Source: Carcharhinus amblyrhynchos (Eukaryota). Taken from it: a stretch of DNA of 64,000 nucleotides. The notes below the pieces were generated by a model. The model worked only from the letters and a program-made list of their open reading frames with translations. It was not told the DNA's origin and did no database searches. Location: NCBI GenBank assembly GCA_965287045.1, contig OZ336886.1, positions 28,396,001 through 28,460,000 on the forward strand, given 5' to 3'. Both the position numbers and the translations under genes were made by a program. Positions 5,662 to 64,000 of this stretch are shown piece by piece (position 1 is the stretch's first letter; each line of letters opens with the position of its first letter).

Positions 5662-6825
5662 CTTTTCTGGGTTGCTGACATGCTACTTAGTCTGGTAAGG
5701 ACAGGTGGGCGGGAGAGGGTGATATGAAAGTGCTGACCCGATGCCTAAACATGGTGCTCTGACCTTTAAACCTACCAGGGCAGACAAATGAATTAACTAC
5801 CAGCCCACCAGGGGATTGGACAGAAACCCGCCTGTGTTTAATTCATGAGGCACCAAATGTGGAATTTGGTGTAGGATCCTGCCATTCTGGCCAGCGAGAA
5901 AGATGCTGCCAGAGTCACTATCACCTCAAAAATGGAAGTGTCAAGAGATAGGGGGTTGAATCAGAAACTGGGCATCGGGGGATCAGAGGCAGGGGGGATT
6001 AGATAAGGGAATTAGAGTCCAGGTGATGGGGAGGTTGGGGGATTAGACTCCGAGTTGAGGGAGGGGTGTGGGAGGGAGAGGTAATTCACAGTTAATAAAT
6101 GCGTGCCTCTCCCAGCTCAGGTCAGCCATTTTCAAAACTTAAACTATTTTGGCAACAAGTGACTGGGTTTAACTCAAGGCAGACAGCCCTTGCACTGAGG
6201 GCCTCAAACTGGTTTGCAGTGGAAAGAAATTAATATCTGCATCACATTAGGGTATTATTTGACAATTCTTTCCTCTTTGTCATGACATGGGGAATGAAAA
6301 TACAACTACACTTCCTACGCATCTTACTGGGGACTTATTCTGCTGGTGAGAAACAAACATTCAGCCAAATTTATATGTCACTGTGTTCCAGCAGTTGAGT
6401 GTGCAAAACCAGTTTCAACACTGTAATGAGGTAAAGCAATGGTGACATAGACCAACCTGCACAAATAATTCTACGTACAAGCACTGAACTGAGCTATCAT
6501 CAGATAATACTGAACTTGGTTGTGGTGGTATCGTAAGCATGATGCTGAATAGGCAGTTCCTGTCATCCTGATAGAGTTCTAAAGTCATTTTCTCCTTCAT
6601 GAACCAGCCTCAACATTGGGGAACTAATTGGCAAGTACTGCAAGTTCAACCCATTCGACAGAAGTGCTTGTGGTTGGAACTGTCCAGTGGCTCTGTAGCA
6701 GGGGGAATAGAGAGTAGGCATGATGGCCCACAGGCCTTGGGCTTAGGCCTCAGTGGGAGATCCATCTGACATCAGGAAGATCCCAATGTGTCTCTTAATT
6801 AACTTGGGGTTGCTAATTCTAATTT

Positions 6826-7621
6826 GGGGTTGCCAACTCTGGTTGGACTTATTTCTGGAAGTTTGATCACTTGAGTTCAGTGAGATTGCTTATTATAGAA
6901 TTCATACTTTGCCGAAAGAGGCTATTCAGCCCAGCACGCCTACACCAACAACAATCCCACTCAGGCCCTATCTCCATAACCCCATGTATTTACCCTGCTA
7001 AACCCCATGACACTAAGGGGCAATTTAGCATGGCCAATAACCTAACCCGCAGATCTTTGAACTGTGGGTGGAAACAGGAGCACCTGGAGGAAACCCACGC
7101 AGACACAGGGAGAACTTGCAAACTCCATGTAGACAGTGATCCGAGGCTGGAATGAAAGCCGGGCCTGTGGAGCTGTGAAGCAGGGTGCTAACTGTTCTGC
7201 CATCGTGCCAGTTTTAATTGCCCATGTCAGGCAACAAAGGCGATTGTAGCAAAGCTCAAAGAGCATCAGCTCACTGGAGGCAAAATCGTGAGACCAGCCA
7301 GTCCAGAAGAAAGAAACTCTCCCCATTGATCAGATTTGAGAATGAACAAAATAGCACATTTTCCACCTCCTCCATGTAACTAAGGGAATTTTGCAATAGC
7401 TTCATTGCAGTGTTAATGTAAGTCTTAATTGTGGCTAATAAATAAACTTTACTTTTTAACTAATAAACAAAACAAAAAACGTTCAAAGAAAATAGAATAA
7501 AAAATCAATTATATTGAGTGCACCTATGATTCGCTTCTGGGGTTTTGAGTCCCAGCCATGGTCTGGAGATCAATCTTCAATGGTTGGAGACTCCTGGGCA
7601 ACCCTGGAAGGTTTGCAACAC
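6826..7621. mobile_element. Putative non-autonomous hAT-like DNA element with nested SINEs
   Basis: Ends ggggttgccaactctgg and cctggaaggtttgcaacac form imperfect GGGTTGCCA-type inverted termini. No TSD confirmed. Confidence 0.45.
6893..7210 (-). mobile_element. HE1-type V-SINE
   Basis: V-domain and tRNA head as in the 2826-3161 copy. Confidence 0.9.
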
Positions 7622-8001
7622 AAGATTGGCTACACGCTGCGGTGGGTAGGTGCTGCCAGTTTGACTCCACCGCTGGCAATACCACTATGGGGGGTGTTAT
7701 GGTGGCCACGAAGACCACCTGGTATCATCGATAGATCTCCCCATGGGCTTTGCGGAGTACGAGCTGCCATATTGAGTGAGTAGAGGCTCGCCCGATAGGA
7801 ACCAGGCAGTGGGGGTTTTAAAGATTGTAACTCTCCCTGGACCGTTATTGTGGGTCCTGAGCTGAAGGCTACCTGACTGTAAACCGCATGCGCAGCCCTT
7901 TCCTTTGGCGTACAGTAAAGGGTGTTGATGACAGGAAACTGGCATTTGGCTGAATTACTACAGGGAGCCACATCTGAGCATTATTCTCTAATGTTGCTCC
8001 T

Positions 8002-8170
8002 TGGCACAGTGGTTAGCACTGCTGCCTCATAACTCCAGGGACCTGGGTGCGATTCCCGGCTTGGGCCACTGTCTGTGTGGAGTGTGTACATTCTCTCCGT
8101 ACCCGTGTGTGTTTCCTCCAGGTGCTTCAGTTTCCTCCCACATGCTGGTTAGGTAAATTGGCCATGGTAA
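8002..8170 (+). mobile_element. V-SINE 5' part
   Basis: tggcacagtggttagcactgctgcctca...tgtctgtgtggagtgtg...tttcctcccaca. Confidence 0.88.
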
Positions 8171-8933
8171 TTCCACAGTAAATTGTCCAGTTTCCAAACC
8201 TGATAAGATCCCACCCGATGCTACTGGTTCCAAAACTGATTGACTTTATTTTAATCGCTAATCATCTGCAAGATTCACCTCCTGTTTTGTAAACTGTGGC
8301 TTCTGCTTAGGTCATTTGGACACTGAGTATTTGCTCTTTAAGAGAAAAACAAGATTCAAAACCTTGATTTCTGGACCTGATTAATTATAAGTCTTACTGA
8401 TTTGTTAATTTAAGTTGATGACAAATGATTGTGCAGAAACATTTAGCAAACAAACTTTTGGTGTGGCCAAACTATGACTAATAGATAAAGAATGAAGCAA
8501 TATTTATTGAAATAGAGCTAAAGGCACCAGTACTTCAGCCAAGCAGCTGGGAATCTGATTTCGGGAACAAAATGCGTGAGAAAGAAGTTCAAAATTAGGT
8601 TTTTTTTTCAATGAACTGCAAGTAACAAGAGTGCATTTTGTGAGACCCCATTTGTAACCTTATAAGAATGACTATGTATCACATCAGACAATGAATAAAT
8701 ATTTATATGTAGTAAAGAATGGTGACAAATTTGTTTTCCCTTTGTTGTCCAGACTCCAAACTGACTAATGGGCACTGAAGGAAGGTATTAGTGAGGGAGA
8801 TTGACTGATGGAATGTATTCCAATGAGGAATTATCGGCCAACAAAGGAAAGTGGACTCCAAAACTATGAAATTCGGGAAATATTTCAATGTGTTAACTCA
8901 ATTGCAGAAATTAGTGTATCTTCTCTTTATAAT

Positions 8934-9148
8934 CTGTGTGGAGTTTGTACATTTTCTCTGTGTCTCCGCGGGTTTCCTCTTGGTGCTCCGGTTTCATCCC
9001 ACAGTCCAAAGATGTGTGGATTAGGTTGATTGGCCAGACTAAATTGTCCCTTAGTGTCAGGGGAATAGGGCCTGGGTGTGATTGCGGTCGGTGCAGACTC
9101 GATGGATCGAGTGGCCTCCTTTTGCATTGTAAGGATTCTATGATTCTA
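8934..9148 (+). mobile_element. HE1-type V-SINE, 5'-truncated
   Basis: V-domain through to tail ggattctatgattctat. Confidence 0.9.
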
Positions 9149-9249
9149 TAATGTTAAGTAAGCGTTGTAAGCCTAGCTTTTCCCTGATTCTTTTATTATA
9201 TTCAAATGCACCACTGCCCACGTTTCTCCGCATTCTACCAACATAACAC

Positions 9250-9410
9250 TATGAAGTGTAGGAACAGAAGTAGGCCACTCGACCACTTAAGAAATCATGA
9301 CTGATCTGATATGATGATCCTTAAATCCACTTTGCCATAGTTTCCCCAGATCCCTTGATTCCCTTATTGTTTACAAATCTATCTCAACCTTAAACATATT
9401 TAACAACCCA
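9250..9410 (-). mobile_element. CR1 3' UTR fragment
   Basis: ggaacagaagtaggcc...atcatgactgatctg...cccttgattccctta...ctatctcaaccttaaacatatt. Confidence 0.7.
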
Positions 9411-11056
9411 AACTGCCTAAGTCTGAAAATGGTGGACAGGAGAAAAAGAACAGCTGAGTTTGCTCCGTGTGGCCACAATACAAATAAGCATCATGAGGCT
9501 CAGCCTCTACTTAACCCCAAGTCAGAAGCTGTTAAGTTCCGAGAAATGCAAAGGCAAAAACAAACGATAAAAGAAAACCCCAAGACCACTTGATGGGGAG
9601 AAAAGATCTGGAAAAACTGCAGACAATTAAAATGTTTTCCAGGAAAGCAAAGTGATGATGATACATACACCCAATGCTAGATGCTGTGGGTACTGAAATT
9701 CAACCCCGCCTTACAACATTATGACTGGATAGCATTTCAACTAACTTTTAAAAATAAGTATAAATCTTCTTTGAAAAGGTGGTTTGTCACAAAATAAATG
9801 AACTGATGATGCAAACAGCCCACTCATTTCTATGGGCTTCTGAGTTATGTGGCATGATGCCATTAAGTGGTTTACTTTCCAGTAAGACACCACTTCCTGC
9901 TGTGTTTTCTGCACATGACTGTGTTGGAATCTTGCTGACAGTTCAGATGCATTTATAGTTGCTCTGTCAGTACCTCGCTCCTAGAAGCTCATTAAAAAAA
10001 AACTTGATCTTGTAAATGAAGCACTTTTCCTGATCTTTGTTTCACGCTGCTATCACAGGATTGTTATTTTGAATAAATGATCTACCATTAAGACAATGAC
10101 ATTGGGTCGAGCAATGCTGTCAATTCTCAGTTGGATCCACCAAGCTAGACAAATTTCATTGCGTCCCCTCTGTTACAATCAGCCACTATCAGGGTATTCC
10201 ACAGTTTTGTATGTAATTGGGCAGCCATTTAATAAATTGGTCTTTTTCTTTTCACCAACGTTGTCCTTAATATCAAAAGCTTAATCAAGGTAGTGAACAA
10301 CAAAATGTGAGGAAATATTTCCACTACACAGGTCTCAGACCTTGTTAAAATGATTGTACTTTGGCAGCAGACGATGTGTTGGTAATGGCAGATGTCAGAA
10401 GTAAAGGAATTGTTAAATTGTTGCCGGACGTCGTATTTTCTTACTGATACATCCATGCCATAATGGATTCAAGGGCTATTGCACAAAGGCAAACTAATTT
10501 GAAGTCCAAATAAATAATACTCAGGCCACACATAAGCTGAATGTAAAACATAATTGCTGCTAAATTTATACAGGATATTATTTATGCTGTAAGAATCTCA
10601 AACTGTAGTTCAGAATTCCATCAGCGAGACAATGTTACCTGATAGTTTTGGGAGCCTATTATCCTGTTACTTTCTCATGGCAATGATTTAGCCGGAATCA
10701 AGTTGCCAACCTATCAGCTTCCTTTTTCTTCTGTAGCATAAATTGTTGTGTTTGTTAGAAGTTTGGTGGTCTTGCATTTGTTCTGCTGAGTGCAAGACTA
10801 AAAGCTTTGGTAATGTGTCTCCCTTTTCCACAGTATTTGAGTTCTGTATATTAAGCAACTGGTTATTACCTATCCGTATATTTTTTCTACACTATTCTTT
10901 TGCAAACTTGCTGTTTTAACTTTTAATTGAAATAATGGCACACGGATGAATGTTATGCGGACCTCTTGATATTTTCGGCTAATATTCCCAACTGTAATTT
11001 GAGAATATTAGCAGTAACTTTGTTATATTTTTGATTGCTAATAGTTGCATCATTAG

Positions 11057-11171
11057 CGGGGGGAGTTTTCCTGCCCTGAATTGTAGCGGGCAGGGTGGGG
11101 GGGGCGAACCATGCAAAAGTCTGCTGTCCTCAGGCCGGATTTTCTGGTTTTGGGGCCAGAAAATCCCAACC
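11057..11171. mobile_element. Harbinger-type MITE
   Basis: Ends ggggggagttttcc and agaaaatcccaacc; interior resembles the 31164-31290 element. Confidence 0.5.
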
Positions 11172-11919
11172 AAAAGTTCTGCGGTGATTGTGCATTTTAT
11201 TTTTACAGTGCTGGGAAACATTAACAGCCACTTCCAGACAACCTCCCAAAGTGAGCCAGATGTATTCATCATTCCTTATTCATCTTGGGACAGTGGTCTC
11301 TCATTTACAGAAATTGTTTCAACGTATGTCGTGAGAGCAACGTTGCAAAAGTCACGGAAATGAAGTCAGACTTCACTGACTGAAATGGGTAAATAAACCA
11401 ACCTCATCCAAAGTTCAGCAGCAACAGGGAAAAAAAAAATCAAAGAAAATTCTTTCAAAAGGCCCCTTAAATTATTAACTTTGAGACAGATTTTGTTGAA
11501 AAAATAATGGCATGTGAATGCCACTTGCCAGGATTAATGCACAAATCATGGTCTGAGGTTGTCACATGCACAGTTCAGGAGTTTTACTCTGTTATTGAGA
11601 GTGACAGCGTGGGCAAACAAATCAAATTCAACAGTGAACAGGGTGCTCTAACAATTCTTCCATGATGACAATGCAAAACATGGATCATTGAACTCCAGGT
11701 CTGCCAGCAATATTCCAGCCTAAGTGCAGTTGTCTCATCAACCACTGTAAAGTTCTGCTCCCAAAGGGGCCGGGTGTAGCATGCATCAGTGAGTTGCCAA
11801 GAATACTGAAATGATGATTAAAAAAGATACTTCTAATAGGAATCTGCTTCTGGCGCAGTGACAGGGTTCATTTAGTTGGGAGATCAACTGTTTCTGAAAG
11901 ACGAGGCGATTCTGAGGAG

Positions 11920-12214
11920 TTTAAGTTTGTTTATTAGTGTCACAAGTTGGCTTACATTAACACTGCAATGAAGTTACCATGAAAATCTGCTAGTCCCCAC
12001 TCTGGCACCTGTTCGGGTACATTGAGGGAGAAATTAGCATGGCCAATGCACCTAACCAGTATGTCTTTCGGACTGTGAAAGGAAACCAGAGCACTTGGAG
12101 TTAACCCACACAGACATGGGGTGAACATGCAGACTCTGCACAGAAAGCGACCCAAACCAGGAATTGAACCCGGGTCCCTGGCACTGTGAGAAGGTAGTGC
12201 TAACCATTGTGCCA
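11920..12214 (-). mobile_element. V-SINE with alternative 3' tail
   Basis: Same head and V-domain as HE1, but the tail reads ...gaacaggtgccagagtg...aacttcattgcagtgttaatgtaagcc...tgtgacactaataaacaaactt. Confidence 0.85.
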
Positions 12215-12654
12215 AAGAGTCTTTGGGTTCCAGGTTTGCAGTGCTCTTTGGTTGTTCCACTTGTTTCCTGGTGCTGCTTTCTTAACCTTTGGTGCCTTCC
12301 ACTTAACCACTTTTTTAAAATACCTGTACAATATTGACCATAAAGGTTCTTGGGCAGGATGGGTGCAGCAGAGTGACATCTTTGGATTTACGTCCATGAG
12401 TATTGATCAGGTGGGTATTATCGACCAACTTGTGGGTCGCATTGCGTTGGCAGGAGACACAATACATTTCAACCATGAATGGCGACATTAATAAACTAAA
12501 AAACCAATAAATCAGCTAATACTTATTGTGTGGTACCTATTTCCATGAAGAGTAAAAGCTTGAGCAGAAATGGCCTCTAAGCCATTGTTGTAATTTTCCT
12601 TGTGGCAAACCAGTCTACTGAATGCCATTGTCTCAAAGCATTTTGATTCCAGCG

Positions 12655-13098
12655 TTGAGAGGGTTAGCAGATGAGGAGAGACTGAGTAGACTGGGGCTAC
12701 ACTCATTGGAATTCAAAAGGATGAGGGGGGATCTTACCTACAAAATTACGAAGGAAATAGGATAGAATCAGGGAAGTTGTTTCGCTGGCAGGTGAAACTA
12801 GAACTAGGGGGCATGGCCTCAAAACAAAAGGGAGCAGATTTAGAACTGAGTTGAGGAGGAACTTCTTCACCCAAAGGGTTGTGAATCTGTGGAATTCCCT
12901 GTCTAGTGAAACAGTTGAGGCTACCTCACTGAATGATTTTAAGGCAAGGATAGATCAATTTTTGAAGAGTAAAGGAATTAAGGGTTATGGTGAGTGGGTG
13001 GGTAAGTGGAGCTGAATCCACAAAAACATCAGCCATGATCTTATTGAATGGCAGGTTTGAGGGGCCTACTCCTGCTCCTAGTCCTTCTGTTCTTATGT
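12655..13098 (+). mobile_element. CR1 LINE 3' fragment
   Basis: EERLSRLGLHSLEF.RMRGDL...FRTELRRNFFTQRVVNLWNSL, then the 3' UTR ending ttctgttcttatg. Confidence 0.92.
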
Positions 13099-13227
13099 AA
13101 GGAGGGACTCAGGTAATAAAGGAAGAGAAGTCATCTTCAGCTGAAGCTTATTTTGTTGAAGGAAGGGGTTCCATTGAGTTTAAAAATGAATGTATAATTT
13201 CAGTACAACTCAGAATTCCATTATCAG

Positions 13228-13428
13228 TGATGTAAAGGCACCAGTTAACATATTTATAGTGTACAGACAACATCACTTAGCCATTATCACATTGCTGTCT
13301 GAAGGAGCTACCCGTGTTCATAATGCTGCCAAGTTCTCTGCATGACAACATTATCTACACTTCAAATACTGCAACAGCTTTATGAATACTTCGAGATATT
13401 CTGAGATTGGTAAAGTTGCTATATAATT
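13228..13428 (+). mobile_element. DeuSINE (SacSINE1-like) 3' fragment
   Basis: ccattatcacattgctgtctg...ctacacttcaaa...aaagttgctatataa; homologous to the 22065-22523 copy. Confidence 0.6.
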
Positions 13429-15564
13429 GTTTTTCTTGGAGATACTCCATTGTGTTACTGATGGTAAATTCTTTTTCTTTGATGAGATTTATGTTTCTGT
13501 GATTTTTGTTGCCTTGACAGGTTTGTATCTCTTGGTGTGTGCTGATGTCTGTGTTTTACAGTATCAATGTGATATGTTGTGTGAGTGCAGTTGATGTTGG
13601 TGACTTGTTTATATATTCATGTATGGAAAAAAAATCTAGTTTTGATCCATCAAGCTACCACACAAAAATTGTTTGGTGCGTCATTTTTGTTCAGTGATTT
13701 CTCTCTGCTAGAGACACTTGGGTTTTGCTAGTGCATGTTTTTGCTAACCTTTTATTCTGAAGCGTTGATCTAAAGTCTCTGGATACATGATTGGCCAGAA
13801 TGTTTGATGATGAGTCTGTTTCGTGTTATTTGTGCTGCTACCTGCCCCAAATGTTTATTTGTGTATTGAGGTCTTTACTTCTAAGTACAATGCTATGTGA
13901 TATCTGTCTGTGTGATACATTGGCCGGAATTTTACCGGCACGTCTGCCCGATTCCACAGCAGGTGAGGCTCAGAGAACTGCATTCTCTGTTGGCCTCAGA
14001 TGGGTCATATGAACCTCGAGTGGATGTGCTAGTAACGTCCGTCCATTGTTTTTGTCTGCATCTTATGAGCTTTGGCTGCTATCACTGGAGACTTATCATT
14101 GAAATGGCACCTCATGTCTCTCCATTTGTTTGCCTGTATGTTGCCTTGTACACTGCACTATACCTGGATAGGAAGCTGGGGCTGCTGAGCAATTCAGAGT
14201 GACAGAAGTTAATAATTCCTGTCTCTAGCAAGGGCAAATCACTGGCTTCAATGATTGTTGTCATGTGCTTCTAAGAGATGTAATCCAGTCTTAGTTTCAC
14301 TTTTACTTTGAGCAGAGCACAGAAGCACAACTCTAATGCCTTCAAGCTTTATACCCATGTTTTACTATTCTCTTGTGCCTAGCCTTAATAACCGGACCCA
14401 CAACATGTTTACCCGTTCCATTATGGGTGATTGGCACCTTGTGTCTAGTTCAGTAAAAAGCTGAAGTTATGATATCATTATAACAATACGACATGGCGAT
14501 CAGTGCTGCACAGATAGATGGCCGCAAGATGAAGTAAAGGTAAGACAAAGTAGTACAGGTAGCACAGCCTTAGATTGTGCTAAATGGCATTGGAAGACCC
14601 TCAACATTTTAGTCAGACTGCAATGAAGTTGCAGTCGTGGAGACTGAGTGATGGAGGAGAAAATCTTTCAGTAAAGAGCTGATAAGCAGACAGCATGGTG
14701 AGTTTGCAGTGCATAGCTACCAGTTCAGTGAGTGGAACAGCATGCCTATAGACCATAAGGTATAGGAGCAGAATTAGGCCATTGAGTCCTTGTCGAGAGG
14801 ATCAGCACCAGGTTAGTTCAGCCAGGAAAGGTGAGTGACCAGGGTGTGGGCTAGATTGACAGTGAGTGAGGGAATGTCAAATAAAAAAAACCAGATTGAA
14901 TATCAGGCCAGAGAAGGTTGCGATCATAATACACAGCTTTGGGAATGCTGTTACTCAGTTTGCATTCTCACCACAACTCCATCTTCATGGTTGAAGCTTT
15001 GGTAAAGCATGCAAAAGTGGCTGCAATGACATTCATTCCAGATACTATGGAAGGAAGGACAGAAGAAAATTGTTAGAATGTCTGCAAAATTTCCCAGATT
15101 GAACTGGGGTGCAGTTGATCTACTATCCAAATTCAAAATGCTTAAGCAACATACAGAGTTATGGTTTCTTGATTCAAGTGTGTCTGAACCGGACAAACAG
15201 GCCAAAACAATTCACCTAGTAATTGGGAATGAAGGTCTACATAACTGAACACATCAGGATTAACAGAAGAAGAGCCAAAGGATCTCCAAAAAGTGCTGGC
15301 GTGCTGCTTTGGACTTTAGTAGAGTGCTGAAATTGAGGTTTGGTGACTGAGAGAATTTGGTCGAGAGGGCAGGGAGTGCTCCTTTCCTTTTGACCTTTCC
15401 TCAGAAAGAAAAGCAGCGAGTTTGGGAAGTTGGATCTGGTGAGTATTTCCACTGTCCTTATATACCATGAACTCGAAGAGGTAAAAGTAAAGGGAATAAT
15501 TTACAGTACAGTGAAATATATAACTGAATAAAGTAATTAAATAGATAGTGCAATCACATTAAGG

Positions 15565-15690
15565 ATAGCAGAGCAGGTGATGAGTCACAACTGCAGCATG
15601 TGGGAGGCTCCTGGATGCCAGGGCAAACATGTCTGCAGTAAGTGTTTGAAGTTCTCAGAGTTTATGAGCTAGAGATTGAATTATAGACAC
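15565..15690 (+). mobile_element. CR1 ORF1 N-terminal zinc-finger fragment inserted in the gag relic
   Basis: QVMSHNCSMWE...GKHVCSKC...RVYELE resembles the Cx2CxMWE...CxKC start of CR1 ORF1. Confidence 0.55.
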
Positions 15691-15938
15691 TTATTCCGAT
15701 GTTTGTATGTGTATTTGATGTGGTCTACATTGGAAGGCCAATTCAGAATCAGGCTAAACTATTGTATTTCTCAACCAGTGTCATTTCAACAACAGCCTAC
15801 AGAATCCACTTCATCAGCAGATGCAGTGAAATGAGTGTGTACTGTGATTCTTCAAATGCATAGCTGAAAGACATAATTGCTGAGTTGGTGATTGCATCCA
15901 CTACCTGGAAGAATTCCAGAAAGATCTGCCAGACAAGC

Positions 15939-16210
15939 TGGTGAAACAATGGCACCATGGTTAGCACTGCTGCCTCACAGTGCCAGGGACCTGGGTTCAA
16001 TTCCGGCTTGGGTCACTGTCTGTGTGGAGTCTGCATGTTCTCCTCGTGTCTATGTGGGTTTCCTCCGGGTAATCTGGTTTCCTCCCACAGTCCAAAGACC
16101 ATGCTGATTAGGGGCATTGGCCATGCTAAATTTTTCCCTCAGTGTGCCTGAACAGGCACCGGAGTGTGGCAACTAGGGCATTTGCAGTAAATAAACTAAA
16201 CTTAAAACTT
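15939..16210 (+). mobile_element. V-SINE with alternative tail and 6-bp TSD
   Basis: Flanked by acaagc at 15933-15938 and 16211-16216. Tail gaacaggcaccggagtgtggcaactaggg...taaataaact. Confidence 0.88.
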
Positions 16211-16446
16211 ACAAGCCCAAAATGTACAGCATTGAAGAGTGACTCAAGGATGGTTATAACTACAAAGCAATCCTCGCAGGTCTCCAAAGCTTACAGATCT
16301 TAAGCACAAGCCTAATGGTTGATGCACTGAATAGGACATCAAAACCTAGCAATTCATGTAGAAGGTGTGGTTTTCTGCATGCGCCAAGGAAATGCCCAGT
16401 ATCCCATCAGAAACATAGCAAGCAGGCTGCTTTGCCCTGGGTGTCT

Positions 16447-16775
16447 TATAGAATCAAAAAATCCTACAGTGCAGAAGGAGGCCATTCAGTCCATCGAGTC
16501 TGCACTGACCACAATCCCATCTTGGCCCTATCCCCATAACCCCATGTATTTATCCTAGCTGGTCCCCTTGAACTATGGGGCAATTCAGCATGGCCAATCC
16601 ACCTACCCAGCACATTTTTGGACTATGGGAGGAAACCGGAGCACCCAGAGGAAACCCATGCAGACATAGGGAGAATGTGCAAACTCCACACAGAGAGAGG
16701 CCCAAGCTGGAAATTGAACCTGGGTCCCCAGCGCTGTGAGGCAGCAGTACCAATCACTGTGCCACCATGCCACCC
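16447..16775 (-). mobile_element. HE1-type V-SINE, full length
   Basis: Head, V-domain and CR1-like tail are all present. Confidence 0.92.
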
Positions 16776-17459
16776 TTCATGTTGAAGCTGCACTCATCCA
16801 ATAAAGCAGAGAGTACTTCCACACACCAGTTTCCACTGAGTGTGCAATGTTAAAATCAAACTTGAGGTTGGGACACTACCTGACTGGATTCCTATCCAGT
16901 TTCTGGCAGATTCCAACCAAAGTTAGTGTGGAACTCTGCTGAAACGGCTGTCGATCGCCAGCATCTCTGTTCTAGTAACAATAAAAACAAATCAATCTAA
17001 ATGTACCCCATAAAAGCTGTTGAAATGTTTCCTCTTGTTAATTTGTCATCAAATTTATTTCGGGGAGAGCTATTGTAGAGTTGCTGCAGAAAATTTTTGT
17101 TAAAATATAGCTGACAGAATAATCCTCCTGCAAAATTGAATCAATCCAATTAAAAATATTGGATGGAATTTTCCACTCTTGCCAAAGTTAGTGAGCGTCT
17201 GAATAGTTCGCCATATCCATCACTGGGAATCCGCTGCAACTGGGCTGGAAAGTCCTGTCAGTACGTTTAGGATTCTAGGAGAAACTGAAGCTTTCAACTA
17301 AAAACTTTGATCAAGACATGAAAAGTTAATGGGCAAATTTAATTAAGTTACTGGAAGATAAAAATATTCTTTTTGTTCATCCTTTCATTTTGGACATTGG
17401 AAATGTTACTTGCTGGGGAAAAGAAAATTATGGATGGAATCGTCACAAACTTGGCAACG

Positions 17460-17990
17460 TGCAGTCTTGGGTGGCACATCCCAGGATGCTGGCACTCTGA
17501 GGAATGCTGGAGTTCAGGAATTTGCTGAGTTCCAGTCAGGTGAAGAGACTGTGGTCTCAGTCATGCCTCAGTTGCTGGCGATACAAAGACAAGCTCAGGA
17601 ACATCAGAAAGAGATATCTGCTTCACTCCGCAGATTGCAAAACTCGGTGGAGAAGTCCACCCACCTTCAGACCAAGGTGATAGCGCTGACAGGCCAATGT
17701 ACAGGTGGGGTGGTGGCCACTGTGAGAGCTTGGTCTCTCAGTGCAGGAGCCTCACTCCATGGCTGATGCACGTGCTGGCGTCCATCAGTGTCAATGTCAG
17801 AAGAGGAATGGGAAGGGGCATTGCCATCATACTCCAGTTGCCCTTCCCTCTCAGGGAGGCAGCTGGGGGCCCTCAGGCAACCAGAGGGAGGAGGATCAGC
17901 AAGTGCAGAGGACCCTGAGAGTGTCCTGAACATCCAAATCCCCTCCTCTTCTGACTCCTTGAGCCCCAGTTCCACAGTCCGAGGAGGGTG
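17460..17990 (+). pseudogene. Harbinger Myb/SANT gene relic, C-terminal coiled-coil exon
   Basis: GTSQDAGTLRNAG...VMPQLLAIQRQAQEHQKEISASLRRLQ is similar to RISQETGTRRDA in the 23.7-24.1 kb copy. Confidence 0.6.
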
Positions 17991-19530
17991 GCATTGGGTG
18001 GGGGGGGGGGGTGCGGACAAGAGATATTAATACATTGAGATTTGGTGGCAGCTGTGGAATGGGAATGGGGCATGGCTGACCAAAGGAGGGAGGTGACAGC
18101 CCAATGAAGGCTTGTCAGGGATGGCAGGGGGAAGTTAGACTACAAAAGAAAGATCAATGCCTACAGACTGTGAGTCAAGCTTGTTTGTGGGAGATCAAGG
18201 ATTATAGAAGGAGGTTAATGGTGAGAGTCGAGGGTAATAGAGGGCAGGATGATAGAGAAGGGGTTGAGGATGATGGATGTCAGGTTGACGGTGCTGGGGG
18301 CAGGTCCAGGAATCCAGGGGGGTGGTGGCAGCTGTTCCAGAGTTACAAATTCCTCATAAACATTCACACTGTGGGGGTGTTGTAGGGGGGCTCTATGGGT
18401 GAGGTATTCTGTGTGGGGGTGTTGTGGGGGGGCTGTATAGGTGGGGTATTCTGTGGGGCTGGCTGCTGGAGGTGACGTTGGAACAGGGGTTTGATGCTGC
18501 TGGGTGGCAAGGGGTTTAAATATGGCAGCCCAATCTTCAACCCCGTGAGGTGGGGCCAGTGACTTCCTGCCATTTGATTGGCCAGGGGCCTCACCTTTGC
18601 ATATGTAATTGACTGTCTGCTGCATGATGGCATGTGGCCAGCAGCAGTGTGGAAATGCTCGAGGTTCGGGGTACCACCATCACCCTCAACATCAGGATAT
18701 ACTGTCCTGTGTGTGTGAGGCTGACACCCACTGCTTCACAAGCAAGAGTGTTACCACTGAACCATCATCCTTGCTGAGCAGGCATTTTGATGGAACCAAG
18801 AAAATGTAAATTGTTAACTTCACTCACACATGAAAGAAGCTGACAAAAGCTTCCCGACAAATGAAGAAAAGGGAAAAGTAGGCAGAAGAATTACTTTATA
18901 CCTTGATGAAGTTGAACACGTACAGGACTATATAATAATGAAGTAGACAAAGACCGCATGGGGACATCAATATAAGATCAATGCTGATCAGAACAAATGC
19001 AAATTGGATAACCTGGACTTCAAGAAACTGCCAACAAAGAAGATTTTTCCAATTCGGAGATTGCATTGATACTATCACAATGATAAAAGGAACATCTACA
19101 AAGCAGAATAATGATCAAATGAGCTTACCAACATAAGAAATAACTACAGAGCAAGCTCTGACTGTGAGAAGATTATAGGCTATGGAAACAAATCAAAGGC
19201 CCCTTGGCTAAAGTATGTGATCAAATCCTTCCTGTGTCAATCATGCGGCTGGTCCACCCCTTCAGCTAGAATTCAGAGCAAAGTAGTAAGTGTTGCTCAC
19301 CATCCTCTCACTTGGAGTTTTGCTGCACCCAACTGTGAATGAAGAGTCAGGAAGGGAACATCCTTCAACAACACTAAAAACAAAACTATTTTTGGAATAT
19401 TTTTCTCTCTAAATGACTTCGACATTGATGATTAAATGACTTTGTAAACATAATGTGGGGGAGGGGGTCAGTGGTGGGGGAGGGGATATTTTCCACTCCA
19501 GCAGGATTTCCTGTAACAACTGCCACCCCA

Positions 19531-19626
19531 CTCACCTGACGAAGGGGCAAAGCCCTGAAAGCTGGTGGTGCTTGCTACCAAATAAACCTGTTGGACTTTA
19601 ACCTGGTGTTGTGAGACTCCTTACTG
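19531..19626 (+). mobile_element. Penelope-type terminal fragment with a minimal hammerhead-ribozyme motif
   Basis: cac-CTGACGA-a-ggggc-aaa-gccct-GAAA-gc-t-g-gtg at 19533-19567, then ccaaataaacctgttggactttaacctggtgttgtgag, which is shared with 38194-38242. Confidence 0.7.
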
Positions 19627-19753
19627 AATTTTTTTGTGAGCAGAGATGGTCCACTAATTGGTTGTCAAGTGCATGGCGGAAAATCATGGAAAACTGCTGA
19701 TATTTGTAACAGTTCCTGGCGTAGCGCGTGTTCCACTGACATCTCCTTCCAGG

Positions 19754-20764
19754 TACATAAGAACATAAGAACATAAGAAATAGGAGCAGGAGTAGGCCAC
19801 CTAGCCCTTCGAGCCTGCCCCGCCATTCAATAAGATCATGGCTGATCTGAAGTGGATCAGTTCCACTTTCCCGCCTGCTCCCCATAACCCTTAATTCCCT
19901 TATCGATCAGAAATCTATCTACCCGTGACTTAAATATATTCAACGAGGTAGCCTCCACCACTTCAATGGGCAGAGAATTCCAGAGATTCATCACCCTCTG
20001 AGAGAAGAAGTTCCTTCTTAACTCTGTTCTAAACTGCCCTGCCCTTATTTTGAGGCTTTGCTCTCTAGTTCTGGTTTCCTTTCTAAGTGGAGAGAATCTC
20101 TCTACCTCTACCCTATCTAGCCCCTTCATTATCTAGTAAGTCTCTATAAGATCCCCCCTCAGCCCTCTAAACTCTAATGAGTACAGACCCAGTCTATTCA
20201 ATCTCTCTTCATAAGCTAACCCCCTCATCTCTGGTATCAGCCTGGTGAACCTTCTCTGCACTCCCTCCTAGGCCAATATATCCTTTCGCAAATAAGGGGA
20301 CCAAAACTGCACACAGTACTCCAGCTGCGGGCTCACCAGTGCCCTGTACAGTTGCAGCAAGACCTCCCAGCTTTTATATTCTATCCCCCTCGCTATAAAG
20401 GCCAACATTCCATTCACCTTCCTGATCACCTGCTGCACCTGCAGACTGGGTTTTTGCGATTCGTGCACAAGGACCCCCAGGTCCCTCTCTACAGTAGCAT
20501 GCTGCAATTTTTCACCATTTAAATAATATTCCTTCCTACTATTATTTCTTCCAAAGTGGATAACCTCACATTTGCCAACGTTATACTCCATCTGCCAGGT
20601 CCTCGCCCACTCACTCAGCCTATCCAGATCTCTCTGCAGACTTTCCGTGTCCTCCATGCAATTTGCTTTTCCACTCATCTTTGTGTCATCAGCAAACTTT
20701 GGTGCCCTACACTCAGCCCCCTCCTCCAGATCGTCTATGTATATGGTAAACAGTTGAGGCCCCA
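19754..20764 (-). mobile_element. Young 5'-truncated CR1 LINE
   Basis: ORF 20268-20786 reads LGPQLFTIYIDDL...KFADDTKM...LVSPQLEYCVQFWSP. The tail is (ttcttatg)n. Confidence 0.96.
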
Positions 20765-20989
20765 AGGTTGAGGTAATGGGTGCCATCCTCTGATGAGGGT
20801 CTCTCAGTATGAAGCAACCTTACCCTCTGGCTCCCACTTATATCAAAGGAACATCCAGAGTCACATCTGGAGGCCCTTCCAGCTACTGACACCCTTCCCC
20901 CCAACCCACCACACACACTCCTCCCCTCCCCACCCCTCACAGCCCCGCAGGGAGTGCTACTTCAATTATTCAGACAAGTGATTCTGTCT

Positions 20990-21390
20990 TCATAGAATCA
21001 TAGAATCCCGACAGTGCAGAAGGAGGCTATTTGGCCCATCGGGTTTGCACCAACCACAATCCCACTGACTCTTACCCAAGCCCTATCCTCATAACCACAC
21101 TTATTTACTCTGCTAATCCCCTGAACCCATATATCTTGGGACACTAAGAAGGAACTTACTATTGCTAATCCACTTAACATGCAAACCTTTGGACACTAGG
21201 TGGCAATTTTGCATGGCCAATCCACTTAACCTGCACATCTTTGGACTGTGGGAGGAAACCGGAGCAACCAGAGGAAACCCACGTAGACACGGGGAGAACA
21301 TGCAAACGCCACATAGTCAGTGACTCGAGGCCGGAATCTGACCTGGGTCCTTGGTTCTGTGAGGCAGCAGTGCTAACCACTGTCACACTG
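20990..21390 (-). mobile_element. HE1-type V-SINE with short internal duplication
   Basis: Head, V-domain and tail present. The aatccacttaac...tgca...ctttggac unit occurs twice (21166-21250). Confidence 0.9.
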
Positions 21391-22064
21391 GGTAGCATTT
21401 AAATGAGGCAAGGCCTCAGCATTCCCAGCTTTCCTAGGTTCACTGGCTGCCACTGGGCTCCAGTACAGCTTTCAGACTCCCCTGTTCATACTGAGGCCAG
21501 TGTAATCGGATTCAGCAGCCTCGAGCTTTCGCCAGATTTAAACAACTTATCTTGCGAATGCTACGAATGTTGAAGCAGCCAACAAACTGACTTGGGGAAA
21601 TTGGCAGTGGTGTTGGTAATTAAGAAAATTTCCTCAAATGCGGTGCTGTGCAGGATCTTATAATCCTTCGTCAGTATTGATACATATCTATTTAATGTCT
21701 GTTCCCAAAAGCTGCAACAAAATAAATTAAGTCTGACAGTTAGTGGCAATAGCTGACCTTGAGAGAGAATTAGTGGGTCATTTCTCCTTATGGTATTGTT
21801 CTCTTTCTCACTCACTGTGCTGAAACTCCAATTATATTGATTTACAATTGGAAATTATATACTCTAGTGCCACAATGTACAAAAGGAATAGCAATATTGT
21901 CGCTGGAATGCCAGTCTTTTACTTGCATGAATTCAGCCACTGTTCCTGGATTTTTTTCACTTCAGTGTAATTTGATGCACATTGCTCAAGTCAAAGCATT
22001 GCATTTGTGGTAAATAAAATACAAGGCATGCTTCTGTTGGAAACAAAGGAATAAAGATGTGAAT

Positions 22065-56462: not shown

Positions 56463-58024
56463 AACCTCCAACTGCCAATTCCAATGAATCCTTTCCGTAA
56501 ACACAAATTACTGCAGATGCTGGAATCTGAAACAAAAATAGAAAAATGCTGGAAAATTCAGTGAGTCTGACAGCATCTGTGAGGAGAGAGCAGAGCCAAT
56601 ATGTCAAATCTAGATTCTTTGTCATTCTGTTTTCCATGATGTTTCTGCAGGATTCTTTCCAACTCACTGAAATAAGCTGTTGTCCAGTTGAATATTTACA
56701 CGTTTGATTTTTTTCTTGCCCTTTATCATAAATACTCCAAACTTAATGGGTGGGACTTTATGGCCCCTTTGTGGTGAGGGCAGAAACATAGACATAGAAA
56801 TATAGAAGGTAGGAGCAGGAGGAGAAAATCAACTTTAATAGCTCTTGTGCTGAAATTATTGTGGACATTGGGAAGGTCTCTGCAGTAATACAGAGCTCTT
56901 GCTTTTTTGGGGGAAAGGGAGGTGGGAATGGTAAAGGAGGTGAAGAATAGCACAGGAATCCCTATGAGCCTGCTCCATCATTCATCACGATAATGGCTGA
57001 TCATCCAATTCAATAGATTAATCTGCTTTCTCCCTATAACCCTTAAGAAGATGACGGTCGGATTTCCCTCCCCCACTCTGTGCCAGGGACAGTTCCTGGG
57101 CATTACTGGACGAAGTGCCTAGTCAGTACGCTGGAACAACCCAGACATGACCCTCTCCCTCCTGGGGCTGTACTCACCTGTGCTAATGGGCCCTGCTCTG
57201 CAGGTGCACATCGTAGGGTTCCTATCATGATTCAAGCTGGTGTGCTCTAATGCCAATTTAACATTGGGGAGGGGGGCACTTTGAGACATGAAGGCCTGGT
57301 AATGAGATTTAAATTGATGCAAATAGGGTTCCTGATTTTTAAAGTCAAGAATTCTGTTATGTTGTTGGCAGGAGTTGGGGAAAAGCTGCCAGTGTAAAAG
57401 CCATTTTGGGACTCCCATATTATTATCTGCCTCCTCTTCCATTCCCACCTTCCTTCCCCCCAGAAAAGTGAGATCAGGAGGTCCCCCCATGTATTATGTA
57501 GAGATCCTCCCAATGTCCACAATAAATTCAGCACAAGAGCTATTTAAGTAGATTTTCCGCAGTGGTTCCACTGTAGTTACACTGTCCATGCCCTTTGGAT
57601 TCCACAGTTCTCCTGTCAACAAGATTTTCCAGTTGCGCCTAAGTCAATGGACTTATTGTCAATTATGACAATTGGTTGCCATGTTTCCCTGGCCCTGCGC
57701 CCACCACGAAGAGGCCATAAAGTCCCACCCATTAAGTTTAGAGTATTTATGCTAAAGGACAAGAAGCAAATCAAACATGTAAATACTCAACTGGATAACA
57801 GCTTATTTCAGTGAGTTGGAAAGAATTTTGCAGAAAAGTGCTGGAAAACAGAATGACTAAAGGTCATCTACATTCGACACATTGGCTCTACTATCTCTCC
57901 ACAGATGTTGCCAGGCTCACTGAGATTTTCCAACATCTTCCTGTTTTTGTTTCAGATTCCAGCATCCACAGTATTTTGTGTTTATGGAAAGGATTCTGGT
58001 CCAGGTTCATTGCAATCGGAGGTT
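56463..58024. repeat. Long inverted duplication (fold-back)
   Basis: 56463-56782 pairs with 57695-58024, and 56823-56950 pairs with 57420-57558. ORFs 56461-56667(-) and 57811-58038(+) give near-identical MSWKE.CR...ENRMTK starts. Confidence 0.92.
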
Positions 58025-58762: not shown

Positions 58763-58799
58763 TCTTGGCCTTTTGGTTAAAGTCAAGTGTAGTATCTGT
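58763..58799 (+). pseudogene. U2 snRNA 5' fragment (about nt 7-43)
   Basis: tcttggccttttggttaaagtcaagtgtagtatctgt versus U2 TCTCGGCCTTTTGGCTAAGATCAAGTGTAGTATCTGT. Confidence 0.85.
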
Positions 58800-58800
58800 G

Positions 58801-59016
58801 ATAGCTTCTTGGTCTTGTGGCTAAGATCAAGCATCAGGGTCAAGTCCAAGATGAGGTATAATGCCTTACCTTGTCAGCTCAGATCTTGTTTGTCTCTCTT
58901 GTGGGGACCATGAATTGGATTCAATTTGAAGCTGTTTTTTTGGAGAAGGCAAGGAATGAATTGGGTCTGCTAGGTCCACTCTGAGCATTGGCTTTGTAAC
59001 TTTGAGAATGGAGTAC
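58801..59016 (+). pseudogene. Full-length divergent U2-snRNA-derived element
   Basis: atagcttcttggtcttgtggctaagatcaag matches U2 nt 1-31. After an insert of about 24 nt it is colinear with the rest of U2: cttgtcag, stem IIb gtctct..ggggac, Sm-like gtttttttggag, gtccactc..gcat, gaatggagtac. Confidence 0.75.
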
Positions 59017-59633
59017 AAATCTTAAAGAAAGGTGTTATCTGGTCCCATTTATTGGTGTTAAAAAAAAGTCTTGAGGAAACCCGAGATCAGTGTGGAGGCA
59101 TAAACATGGGAGACAAGAAAGCTTTCCTTTAGCGAGAGAGGCCATGCATCATAGATGCAGTGATAACACCAGGATTCCAGGTTTGATGGCAGAATATGGT
59201 GAAGCTTTCTGACTCCAGAATCGTCCTGAAAGGTTCATTGTGCAGGAATCCCTTGCTTTAAAGCTAAGCTTTTCAAATAGGAAGTTTTATATCTCTTAGG
59301 TTGATCAGTTTTACTTGTAGCAGTCACTGTTCATTGACTTAGGTTCCCTATGATCGGCAAGGAACTATACATAATAAATGTAGGCAACTATCTTAAGGTA
59401 CAGTGTAATTAAGCACGAACTAGAATACCAAGTGCTGGTAGAGAAAGATGTGCCAGAACTTTATAAGTCCCCAAGATTAGAGAAACATGAGAGTCAAACC
59501 AGCTCAAATATTGTGACTTGCTCAGATAATGGATTCAACTGGAACCAAAGGAGATGCTGTGAAAGCGAGTTCAACAACACAACACTTTAAAAACCAGAGA
59601 ATGTTTACAAGGAAGAGTGGCACTAACATGCTC

Positions 59634-62600
59634 CATTGAGAATAGGGCCCACTCTGCATTGAGAACAGGGCCCACTCTGCCTTGAGAATAGGGTCCACTC
59701 TGCATTGAGAATAGCGTCCACTCTGCATTGAGAATAGGGTCCACTCTGCATTGAGAACAGGGTCCACTCTGCATTGAGAACAGGGTCCACTCTGCATTGA
59801 GAATAGGGTCCACTCTGCATTGAGAACAGGGTCCACTCTGCATTGAGAATAGGGTCCACTCTGCATTGAGAACAGGGTCCACTCTGCATTGAGAACAGGG
59901 TCCACTCTGCATTGAGAATAGGGTCCACTCTGCATTGAGAATAGGGTCCACTCTGCATTGAGAATAGGGCCCACTCTGCATTGAGAATAGGGTCCACTCT
60001 GCATTGAGAACAGGGTCCACTCTGCATTGAGAATAGCGTCCACTCTGCATTGAGAACAGGGCCCACTCTGCATTGAGAATAGGGCCCACTCTGCATTGAG
60101 AATAGGGTCCACTCTGCATTGAGAACAGGGCCCACTCTGCATTGAGAACAGGGTCCACTCTGCATTGAGAATAGCGTCCACTCTGCATTGAGGATAGGGT
60201 CCACTCTGCATTGAGAATAGAGTCCACTCTGCATTGAGAACAGGGCCCACTCTGCATTGAGAATAGAGTCCACTCTGCATTGAGAATAGGGCCCACTCTG
60301 CATTGAGAATAGGGCCCACTCTGCATTGAGAATAGAGTCCACTCTGCATTGAGAACAGGGCCCACTCTGCATTGAGAATAGAGTCCACTCTGCATTGAGA
60401 ATAGGGCCCACTCTGCATTGAGAATAGAGTCCATTCTGCATTGAGAACAGGGCCCACTCTGCATTGAGAACAGGGTCCACTCTGCATTGAGAACAGGGTC
60501 CACTCTGCATTGAGAATAGGGCCCACTCTGTACTGAGAATAGGGTCCACTCTGCATTGAGAACAGGGCCCACTCTGCATTGAGAATAGGGTCCACTCTGC
60601 ATTGAGAACAGGGCCCACTCTGCATTGAGAATAGAGTCCACTCTGCATTGAGAACAGGGTCCACTCTGCATTGAGAACAGGGTCCACTCTGCATTGAGAA
60701 TAGGGCCCACTCTGTACTGAGAATAGGGTCCACTCCGCATTGAGAACAGGGCCCACTCTGCATTGAGAACAGGGTCCACTCTGCATTGAGAATAGGGTCC
60801 ACTCTGCATTGAGAATAGGGTCCATGCTGCATTGAGAATAGGGCCCACTCTGCATTGAGAATAGGGCCCACTCTGCATTGAGAATAGGGCCCACTCTGCA
60901 TTGAGAATAGGGTCCACTCTGCATTGAGAATAGGGTCCACTCTGCACTGAGAATAGGGTCCACTCTGCATTGAGAATAGGGCCCACTCTGCATTGAGAAT
61001 AGAGTCCACTCTGCATTGAGAACAGGGTCCGCTCTGCATTGAGAATAGGGCCCACTCTGCATTGAGAACAGGGTCCACTCTGCACTGAGAACAGGGTCCA
61101 CTCTGCATTGAGAATAGGGTCCACTCTGCATTGAGAATAGGGCCCACTCTGCATTGAGAATAGGGTCCACTCTGCATTGAGAACAGGGCCCACTCTGCAT
61201 TGAGAATAGAGTCCACTCTGCATTGAGATAGGGTCCATGCTGCATTGAGAATAGGGTCCATGCTGCATTGAGAATAGGGTCCATGCTGCATTGAGAATAG
61301 GGCACACTCTGCATTGAGAACAAGGCCCACTCTGCATTGAGAATAGGGTCCATGCTGCATTGAGAATAGGGCCCACTCTGCATTGAGAATAGGGTCCACT
61401 CTGCATTGAGAATAGGGTCCATGCTGCATTGAGAATAGGGTCCATGCTGCATTGAGAATAGGGTCCACTCTGCATTGAGAATAGGGTCCATGCTTCATTG
61501 AGAATAGGGCCCACTCTGCATTGAGAATAGGGTCCACTCTGCATTGAGAATAGGGTCCACTCTGCATTGAGAATAGGGTCCACTCTGCATTGAGAATAGG
61601 GTCCACTCTGCATTGAGAATAGGGTCCATGCTGCATTGAGAATAGGGCACACTCTGCATTGAGAATAGGGCACACTCTGCATTGAGAACAGGGCCCACTC
61701 TGCATTGAGAATAGGGCACACTCTGCATTGAGAACAGGGCCCACTCTGCATTGAGAATAAGGTCCACTCTGCATTGAGAATAGGGTCCACTCTGCATTGA
61801 GAACAGGGCCCACTCTGCATTGAGAATAGGGTCTACTCTGCATTGAGAATAGGGTCCATGCTGCATTGAGAATAGGGTCCACTCTGCATTGAGAACAGGG
61901 TCCATGCTGCATTGAGAACAGGGCCCACTCTGCATTGAGAATAGGGTCCACTCTGCATTGAGGATAGGGCCCTCTCGGCATTGAGAACAGGGCCCACTCT
62001 GCATTGAGAACAGGGCCCACTCTGCATTGAGAATAGGGCCCACTCTGCATTGAGAATAGGGTCCATGCTGCATTGAGAACAGGGCCCACTCTGCATTGAG
62101 AATAGGGTCCACTCTGCATTGAGAATAGGGTCCACTCTGCATTGAGAATAGGGTCCACTCTGCATTGAGAATAGGGTCCACTCTGCATTGAGAACAGGGT
62201 CCACTCTGCATTGAGAATAGGGCCCTCTCTGCATTGAGAATAGGGTCCACTCTGCATTGAGAATAGGGCCCTCTCTGCATTGAGAACAGGGTCCACTCTG
62301 CATTGAGAACAGGGTCCACTCTGCATTGAGAATAGGGCCCTCTCTGCATTGAGAATAGGGTCCACTCTGCATTGAGAATAGGGCCCTCTCTGCATTGAGA
62401 ATAGGGTCCACTCTGCATTGAGAACAGGGTCCACTCTGCATTGAGAACAGGGCCCACTCTGCATTGAGAATAGGGCCCTCTCTGCATTGAGAATAGGGTC
62501 CACTCTGCATTGAGAATAGGGCCCTCTCTGCATTGAGAATAGGGTCCATGCTGCATTGAGAACAGGGTCCACTCTGCATTGAGAATAGGGCCCTCTCTGC

Positions 62601-64000
62601 ATTGAGAACAGGGTCCACTCTGCATTGAGAATAGGGCCCTCTCTGCATTGAGAATAGGGTCCACTCTGCATTGAGAATAGGGTCCACTCTGCATTGAGAA
62701 CAGGGTCCACTCTGCATTGAGAATAGGGCCCTCTCTGCATTGAGAATAGGGTCCACTCTGCATTGAGAACAGGGTCCACTCTGCATTGAGAACAGGGCCC
62801 ACTCTGCATTGATAATAGGGCCCACTCTGCATTGACAATAGGGTCCACTCTGCATTGAGAACAGGGCCCACTCTGCATTGAGAATAGGGCCCACTCTGCA
62901 TTGAGAATAGAGTCCACTCTGCATTGAGAATAGGGTCCACTTTGCATTGAGAATAGTGTCCACTCTGCATTGAGAATAGGGTCCACTCTGCATTGAGAAC
63001 AGGGCCCACTCTGCATTGAGAACAGGGCCCACTCTGCATTGAGAACAGGGTTCATTCTGCATTGAGAACAGGGTCCACTCTGCATTGAGAATAGGGTCCA
63101 CTCTGCATTGAGAATAGTGTCCACTCTGCATTGAGAATAGGGTCCACTCTGCATTGAGAACAGGGCCCACTCTGCATTGAGAATAGGGCCCTCTCTGCAT
63201 TGAGAATAGTGTCCACTCTGCATTGAGAATAGGGTCCACTCTGCATTGAGAACAGGGCCCACTCTGCATTGAGAATAGGGCCCACTCTGTACTGAGAATA
63301 GGGTCCACTCTGCATTGAGAACAGGGCCCACTCTGCATTGAGAACAGGGTCCACTCTGCATTGAGAACAGGGTCCACTCTGCATTGAGAATAGGGCCCAC
63401 TCTGTACTGAGAATAGGGTCCACTCTGCATTGAGAACAGGGCCCACTCTGCATTGAGAATAGGGTCCACTCTGCATTGAGAACAGGGCCCACTCTGCATT
63501 GAGAATAGAGTCCACTCTGCATTGAGAACAGGGTCCACTCTGCATTGAGAACAGGGTCCACTCTGCATTGAGAATAGGGCCCACTCTGTACTGAGAATAG
63601 GGTCCACTCCGCATTGAGAACAGGGCCCACTCTGCATTGAGAACAGGGTCCACTCTGCATTGAGAATAGGGTCCACTCTGCATTGAGAATAGGGTCCATG
63701 CTGCATTGAGAATAGGGCCCACTCTGCATTGAGAATAGGGCCCACTCTGCATTGAGAATAGGGCCCACTCTGCATTGAGAATAGGGTCCACTCTGCATTG
63801 AGAATAGGGTCCACTCTGCACTGAGAATAGGGTCCACTCTGCATTGAGAATAGGGCCCACTCTGCATTGAGAATAGAGTCCACTCTGCATTGAGAACAGG
63901 GTCCGCTCTGCATTGAGAATAGGGCCCACTCTGCATTGAGAACAGGGTCCACTCTGCACTGAGAACAGGGTCCACTCTGCATTGAGAATAGGGTCCACTC
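59634..64000. repeat. 23-bp minisatellite, consensus CATTGAGAA(T/C)AGGG(T/C)CCACTCTG, about 190 units, running off the window end
   Basis: Direct reading of the sequence. The 23-aa periodicity of the minus-strand ORFs equals three 23-nt units. Confidence 0.99.

Follow-up and report, generated by a model that had tools for sequence, protein, structure and literature searches.

A full-length U2-derived retroposon family, apparently undescribed, with a remodelled fold and a candidate U2-targeting LINE partner in the same genome

The element described here, found in a 64,000-nucleotide stretch of DNA (the window), is a copy of a real and apparently undescribed family of retroposons derived from U2 snRNA, which we call family A. 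In our preferred reading, which we consider probable, this is a retroposon family, likely extinct, that stems from a whole, remodelled U2, had a few source loci driven by a U2-type promoter, and was reverse transcribed by a Keno-like LINE of the Tx1 clade. An earlier note on this DNA had left the choice between a U2-derived SINE and a variant snRNA family; a SINE-like family derived from U2 is favoured, and neither a near-consensus nor a promoter-flanked copy was found that would speak for a variant gene. The literature searched (SINEU, Keno, sharks) holds no description of a U2-headed SINE family outside crocodilians, most subscription journals and Repbase Reports lying outside that search, and there is no mention of such a family in the accessible parts of PMC5786205, PMC5499810 and PMC7245038. 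The copy in the window is laid out as follows.

58763..58799, + strand: extra U2 5' fragment, nt 7-43 (89%), directly 5' of the family A copy; rare in family A
58801..59030, + strand: full-length retroposon derived from U2 (family A), at 90% identity to the consensus of its family
58801..58831, + strand: U2 head, nt 1-31, including stem I (58807-58826)
58832..58856 (end also given as 58855), + strand: family-wide insert, 24 nt in the consensus and 25 in this copy, resembling two more copies of U2 nt 20-31
58838..58885, + strand: predicted long hairpin in the register of the U2 branchpoint-interacting stem loop; its loop holds the mutated recognition sequence (58857-58863)
58892..58908, + strand: stem IIb homologue, pairing retained
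58912..58945, + strand: second, low-complexity insertion (11-18 nt, depending on the subfamily) plus a degenerate Sm-like U tract at 58934-58945
58953..58981, + strand: stem III homologue, its pairing decayed in this copy but present in the consensus of the old and middle subfamilies
58987..59011, + strand: stem-loop IV with an 8-nt deletion
59012..59030 (start also given as 59011), + strand: family tail of A run, T run and A run

First of all, the relation to U2 does not depend on the head. With U2 nt 1 placed at 58801, the copy is identical to the genome's own U2 gene (L031) at 132 of 181 aligned bases, and beyond the head it matches U2 with a z of about 10 over 500 shuffles; the colinearity proposed earlier for 58801-59030 is thus real. 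The Rfam U2 model, suggested as a check, does span the copy end to end (58801-59021), at a weak 26.6 bits (E 0.00097) that stays below the gathering score of 46. Stem I, the insert, ATAATG, stem IIb, the Sm-like tract, the short stem IV and the tail all lie where they had been placed; the second insertion, the broken stem IIa and the U2 7-43 fragment had been left out. Where GTAGTA had been said to read ATAATG (58858-58863), the loss of the recognition motif holds family-wide, but the family reads GCAATG at the branch-point recognition site, and the first two letters of ATAATG are decay of a single copy, not a family trait. Stem I pairing, previously taken as a sign of separate evolution, is uninformative, because the family A consensus equals the genome's U2 over nt 1-31 once CpG is restored. 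The window copy as a whole folds like shuffles (z -0.30); its hairpin alone does better (z -2.55). No target-site duplication is recognisable in its flanks. This copy is dead, and it matters solely as a pointer to its family.

Two neighbouring repeats are recorded in their own right. A 23-nt satellite fills 59634-64000 with about 190 units and runs about 2.5 kb beyond the window (L085), and its unit has 16 bases, with a 2-base gap, in common with the stem III/IV region of the element. This score was reached in 5 of 3,000 shuffled units and was exceeded in one of 266 upstream 220-nt windows; because of the latter, an origin of the satellite from the element is not established. The segment at 57890-57985 is a piece of a very high-copy repeat, with a summed contig depth far above that of family A.

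The family becomes apparent in the 2.9-Gb genome. A DNA search with the window copy gave 3,562 candidates, the best 40 of which comprise the query locus and dispersed copies at 78-85% identity to it. Many copies with the insert in common, named beforehand as what would establish a family, do exist: an 18-mer spanning the junction of head and insert has 213 exact matches and a 3' 16-mer has 822, against none for either reversed control. All 30 loci examined for the 3' motif are members, of which 25 reach the head and 5 are 5'-truncated or interrupted. Recapture of the 3' motif in 6 of 60 copies picked by 5' motifs gives about 8,200 copies (range 4,000-22,000). The copies are 79-96% identical to a consensus of about 230 nt (set means 86-91%), with CpG decay present; aligned copies have the insertions in common, and their flanks are unrelated. 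An ordinary old U2 pseudogene, single-copy or segmentally duplicated, is what the shuffle-like fold and sub-threshold Rfam score of the window copy might suggest, and three copies on one contig are indeed segmental duplicates. Thousands of dispersed copies with unrelated flanks and the same insertions and ends have already refuted this reading, which had been named in advance as the refutation, and we give it practically no credence. The contig with those duplicates carries a cluster of four copies, the fourth being an unrelated copy. Contigs from four runs of four organisms stack on the element, at a depth that is not a copy number, and single contigs of two of them span the left flank into it, so both family A and the window insertion are common to relatives.

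Second, the copies bear the marks of retrotransposition. In 87 copies picked by motif or by location, the alignment begins within nt 1-6 in 44 and within nt 1-14 in 69, and a fixed 3' end leads into successive runs of A, T and A (102 tails). Target-site duplications with at least 9 of 10 flank matches occur in 13 of 101 copies versus 3.1% of shuffled pairs, in a mismatch-tolerant test with shuffled controls (an exact-match version gave noise). The window copy, which starts at U2 +1 and has the fixed 3' end of this family, is a retrocopy, as had been supposed. The flanks of 30 loci contain no insertion target common to the copies, and a DNA-transposon target such as that of SINEU-3, considered for the same flanks, was not seen there. 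As for a possible LINE-derived 3' tail, 0 of 30 3'-motif loci sit in a LINE end; the resemblance of the tail, to that of the LINE as well as to the 3' flank of the U2 gene, is at low complexity only and does not decide the matter.

The search for a source locus, which the earlier note had called for, returned no family A gene. Two DNA searches, with the window copy and an old-type query, gave no near-consensus source among the best 40 of about 4,000 candidates each (top non-self match 85-87%). Of two CpG-intact patterns, one had 79 matches, the 30 examined lying at 83-94%, and the other 4 matches at 81-93%, with no source among them; nor was one present in about 480 kb of U2 arrays, in which 200 of the 745 kb of the largest array contig were covered. 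A similarity test against both U2 gene flanks, with no promoter model, found a U2-gene-like upstream flank in 0 of 99 family A flanks. Four RNA runs contain divergent family A pieces only, many of them within longer contigs, which speaks neither for nor against expression. Family A looks extinct, since no source gene came out of the DNA searches (which score the best candidates only, in an assembly that is perhaps incomplete), the CpG-intact patterns or the array scan.

Third, the data support a family A template that evolved as a folded RNA of its own. In the old subfamily the insert resembles two extra copies of U2 nt 20-31, at 9/12 and 8/12 bases, and the third copy of nt 20-31 is predicted to form pairs (G25-C45, C28-G42) with the U2 nt 38-47 homologue, in the same register as the U2 branchpoint-interacting stem loop described in the accessible part of PMC13019295. 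The insert is thus predicted to lock the branch-point region into a long hairpin, which would use up the 3' arm of stem IIa; that stem has broken pairs. Linked variants define old, middle and young subfamilies of 13, 17 and 73 copies, and hairpin stability goes from z -2.4 in the old to z -3.8 in the middle one, U2 nt 19-64 itself having a z of 0.05. Identity to U2 beyond nt 31 is 106/148 in the old, 103/148 in the middle and 99/149 in the young subfamily, a gradient that is partly circular because the groups were set post hoc and partly on U2-like columns. Changes in the 5' and 3' arms of the hairpin are linked in 48, 22, 9 and 3 copies (copies counted, not independent events). Changed stem pairs that still pair number 11/13 in the old, 12/13 in the middle and 13/17 in the young subfamily, with 35-42% expected; without three CpG-suspect pairs the old group retains 8/10 (p 0.006 under a 36% null and 0.055 under a 50% null). 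At one stem III pair, in 129 copies examined, the G-C of U2 gives way to A-U (24 copies) and then to C-G or CpG-decay forms (69). Stepwise subfamily drift and the retained pairs in the old and middle groups thus bear out the earlier suggestion of a template evolving as its own RNA.

Such retained pairing also invites another explanation, in which a functional U2 snRNA variant gene, conserved for a cellular role, left these retrocopies behind passively, with no selfish amplification. Copies that begin at U2 +1, stems I, IIb, III and short IV that still pair through compensatory changes, and a surviving U-rich Sm-like tract are all consistent with it. However, the splicing-critical parts of U2 are lost in family A: the recognition sequence reads GCAAUG for the GUAGUA of a functional U2 and is predicted to be locked, the pairing of stem IIa is broken, loop IV is short, and the Sm-site A is retained in just 10 of 129 copies; upstream of the window copy lies a U2 fragment. 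The two DNA searches and the two CpG-intact patterns gave no near-consensus copy, and none of the 99 flanks is U2-gene-like. Moreover, against the 213-822 exact matches of the family A motifs, a U2 20-mer has about 70 dispersed matches on large contigs, and of 30 rows examined only 7 are plain U2 retrocopies or fragments, the others being joined to a second family, B (13), to a LINE (9 rows, 6 loci) or to an A/B intermediate (1). We regard a variant gene as very unlikely.

The LINE concerned enters U2 genes. There are two U2 gene types in this genome, a 10.5-kb repeat (contig C45) and a ~407-bp tandem array whose U2 is divergent; a Keno-like LINE, some copies of which are intact, has entered both types at nt 38, and C45 also has a tandem LINE run. 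A 200-kb part of one array contains 236 intact U2 units and 32 with an interruption at nt 38, whose upstream parts end at nt 45-58; the U2 heads on array insertions as a whole span nt 40-58. Intact open reading frames of 418 and 1,152 aa lie between U2 1-56 and U2 38-186 inside a U2 gene. The LINE has the Pfam domains zf-CCHC, Exo_endo_phos, RVT_1 and zf-RVT (zinc knuckle, APE endonuclease, reverse transcriptase). Among 30 junctions of poly(A) and U2 nt 38 examined, 25 belong to the LINE, 4 to family B, 1 to neither and 0 to family A; the pattern has 71 matches versus 32 in the reversed control, and only the 30 examined loci are used. Like Keno in the part of PMC4640811 available, the LINE combines an APE endonuclease with a reverse transcriptase and is followed by U2 from nt 38 (38 or 39, as an A may belong to the tail); the same text has Utopia of Phytophthora inserting at U2 nt 39 and Keno at the same site. 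Keno, a U2-targeting member of the Tx1 clade, occurs in frogs, fish, lancelet and hydra according to the partial source. Domains and target site together would make our LINE a Keno-like Tx1 element. On the other hand, family A is unlike Keno in being non-autonomous and in not having been found at the U2 nt 38 site.

Dispersed copies of this LINE bear on its transcription. The full-length copies L302 and L306 start at U2 +1/+2 without array flank and L301 starts at nt 9, and all three carry the same U2(56) junction as the intact copy inserted in the array. Starts near U2 +1 are consistent with initiation at the U2 promoter, although a LINE with a fixed U2 head would look identical. In L153 and L173, a 5'-truncated LINE stands behind U2 1-52 and 1-47, respectively, together with at least about 19 nt resembling the array upstream flank, which suggests that their transcripts began upstream of +1 or that they are displaced pieces of an array. 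Three full-length U2 retrocopies (L165, L166, L177) include about 35 nt of gene 3' flank and were likely copied from unprocessed precursors.

Family B is younger than family A and numbers at least 1,037 copies. Its 18-mer has 1,037 exact matches, its copies of about 310 nt have a mean identity of 94%, and target-site duplications occur in 7 of 28 copies versus 1.7% in the control. Its parts are U2 1-40, a fold-back, another U2-like head, the A hairpin in two versions, an extended stem IIb and an AATAAA tail, and the fold-back is predicted to cover the recognition sequence with 15 paired bases (z -6.5). Compensatory changes distinguish subfamilies of B. Among 27 copies, a pair in stem IIb appears as C-G 13 times and as U-A 12 times, and a pair in the hairpin as U-A 20 times, C-G 4 times and U-G once; pairs changing on both sides (3/57) are alone no better than shuffles (149/500), but the cell counts do beat them. 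Family B occupies the U2 nt 38 site at 4 of 11 dispersed junctions, and in one displaced fragment of an array, B follows a U2 head and array spacer. Older B copies retain the loop sequence of A, and family A likely gave rise to B. The intermediate L169 consists of a U2 head, an unrelated spacer and an A-type body with a duplicated hairpin, and ends after the Sm-like tract. One further B copy (L159) has very many A-to-G changes and about 70% identity to other copies, and possibly derives from hyper-edited RNA.

We infer that the Tx1 LINE was also the carrier of family A. Of 117 family A loci, 11 have a same-orientation A, B, Tx1 or U2-head neighbour no more than 35 nt away (a query containing the U2 head had picked two of the 11), and both Tx1 matches in 338 kb of family A flank follow an A copy at a distance of 21-24 nt. 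Among another 26 loci of the old type, Tx1 lies near the copy in one and 330-1,060 nt away in two. A pattern for a U2 head joined to A matched, genome-wide, the window locus only; a second case, L027, was missed by the pattern, and the heads of the two copies end at nt 43 and nt 50. No family A insertion at the U2 nt 38 site was seen in pattern matches (0), in the 30 junctions or in about 480 kb of arrays; array turnover could have erased old ones. Beyond the low-complexity tail, no A-specific 3' sequence in common with the LINE was found.

These observations have also to be weighed for a U2-derived SINE-like family carried by another LINE (L1 or an older, non-Keno Tx1), with its own fixed U2-type source gene and no homing, the head of the window copy then being a one-off template switch. 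The lack of an A copy at the U2 site, the rarity of U2 heads on A and the lack of a target common to A flanks would agree with this, as would Kojima 2015, which, in the part available, attributes such 5' extensions to template switching (PMC4494074). Against it, family B, which has the modules of A, uses the U2 nt 38 site, A forms chains with B and Tx1 copies far above chance, and the A heads end in or near the nt 40-58 range of the array-insertion heads. We judge another carrier unlikely.

With a Keno-like Tx1 carrier, which we prefer, the history might have run as follows. A U2 gene copy would have triplicated nt 20-31, which would have locked the branch-point region in the hairpin and taken the RNA out of splicing. 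The source RNAs, likely transcribed from a U2-type promoter and copied by the Tx1 enzyme, would have kept evolving under selection for folding. Family B may then have arisen when the hairpin was duplicated, stems III-IV were lost and a new U2 head was acquired. The extra U2 7-43 fragment preceding the window copy could stem from a source that sat within a U2 gene, or from a switch of template to U2 RNA. In a further-reaching version, family A would have founded an independent line of parasites made from snRNA: an entire U2 gene would have disarmed itself by the stabilised hairpin, kept its promoter and start, and hijacked the U2-targeting LINE, and B would home to U2 genes for a promoter and mask its new head by the fold-back. 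We hold this founder scenario only tentatively and lean towards doubt.

How does family A compare with known systems? According to the accessible part of Kojima 2015 (PMC4494074), SINEU was not detected outside crocodilians, snRNA-headed SINEs were known there only, and their transcription was left open. By the features given there for SINEU, family A has a U2 5' head, is shorter than 500 nt, is multicopy and has a common rearrangement. It resembles SINEU-3, as described in that part (PMC4494074), in being short and almost wholly U2, in its polyA-like tail and in the rearrangement common to its copies, in an identity of about 89% to consensus, tandem insertions, internal oligo-T and the lack of an internal promoter, as well as in Tx1 as the proposed carrier and 5' snRNA extensions within the group. 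SINEU-3 has an internal U2 deletion of about 50 nt, a non-U2 3' end and about 1,600 copies, 90% of which are flanked by Mariner-N4 (PMC4494074, in part). Unlike it, so far as the description reaches, family A has homologues of all U2 domains, gained insertions and only an 8-nt deletion, has no common target (30 loci), and shares its genome with a LINE that enters U2 genes. The partial description gives SINEU a poly(A) tail and occasional target-site duplications of about 10 bp; the tail of A is a composite A/T/A run rather than pure poly(A), and its duplications stand at 13/101 vs 3.1%. A Tx1 carrier, proposed for SINEU, is judged by common targets; here B is at the U2 site, a pattern search gave 0 A copies there, and A forms chains with B and Tx1. 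The lack of the internal deletion and of the Mariner-N4 target sets A apart from SINEU-3. Compared with SINEU by description, family A is most like SINEU-3 in its working, yet a separate variant of probably independent origin.

Like processed snRNA pseudogenes and snRNA/LINE chimeras (PMC4494074, in part), the window locus has a U2 5' fragment fused to a retroelement, at 58763-58799; unlike these chimeras, which that text treats as independent one-off events, family A has common derived insertions and subfamilies. A classical Pol III SINE, which has a tRNA, 5S or 7SL head with an internal promoter and lacks an internal T run, is different again, as in family A no tRNA is recognised, U2 is the only Rfam match and a T5 run lies inside the consensus. 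The Alu precursors FAM and FLAM are derived from 7SL and have an internal Pol III promoter; the U2 promoter is external and of the Pol II type. Family A is nonetheless like FAM/FLAM in the path from a whole small RNA gene to a founder and on to composite families, an analogy drawn for SINEU-3 in the available part of PMC4494074.

Taken together, this genome holds a second, probably independent origin of snRNA-headed SINEs, with a graded series from U2 through A to B and an intact U2-targeting LINE side by side. That the recognition sequence is masked repeatedly suggests a need for parasites of this kind to leave splicing undisturbed. Altered U2 RNAs change splicing and expression in human cells, and mutant snRNPs have been speculated to compete with normal U2 (both in the accessible part of PMC13019295). 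The series of U2, A and B, together with the LINE, makes the question of how SINEU is transcribed testable. If the founder scenario were true, the whole path from a splicing RNA to a SINE would be preserved in one genome, and it would answer how the promoter-less SINEU is transcribed.
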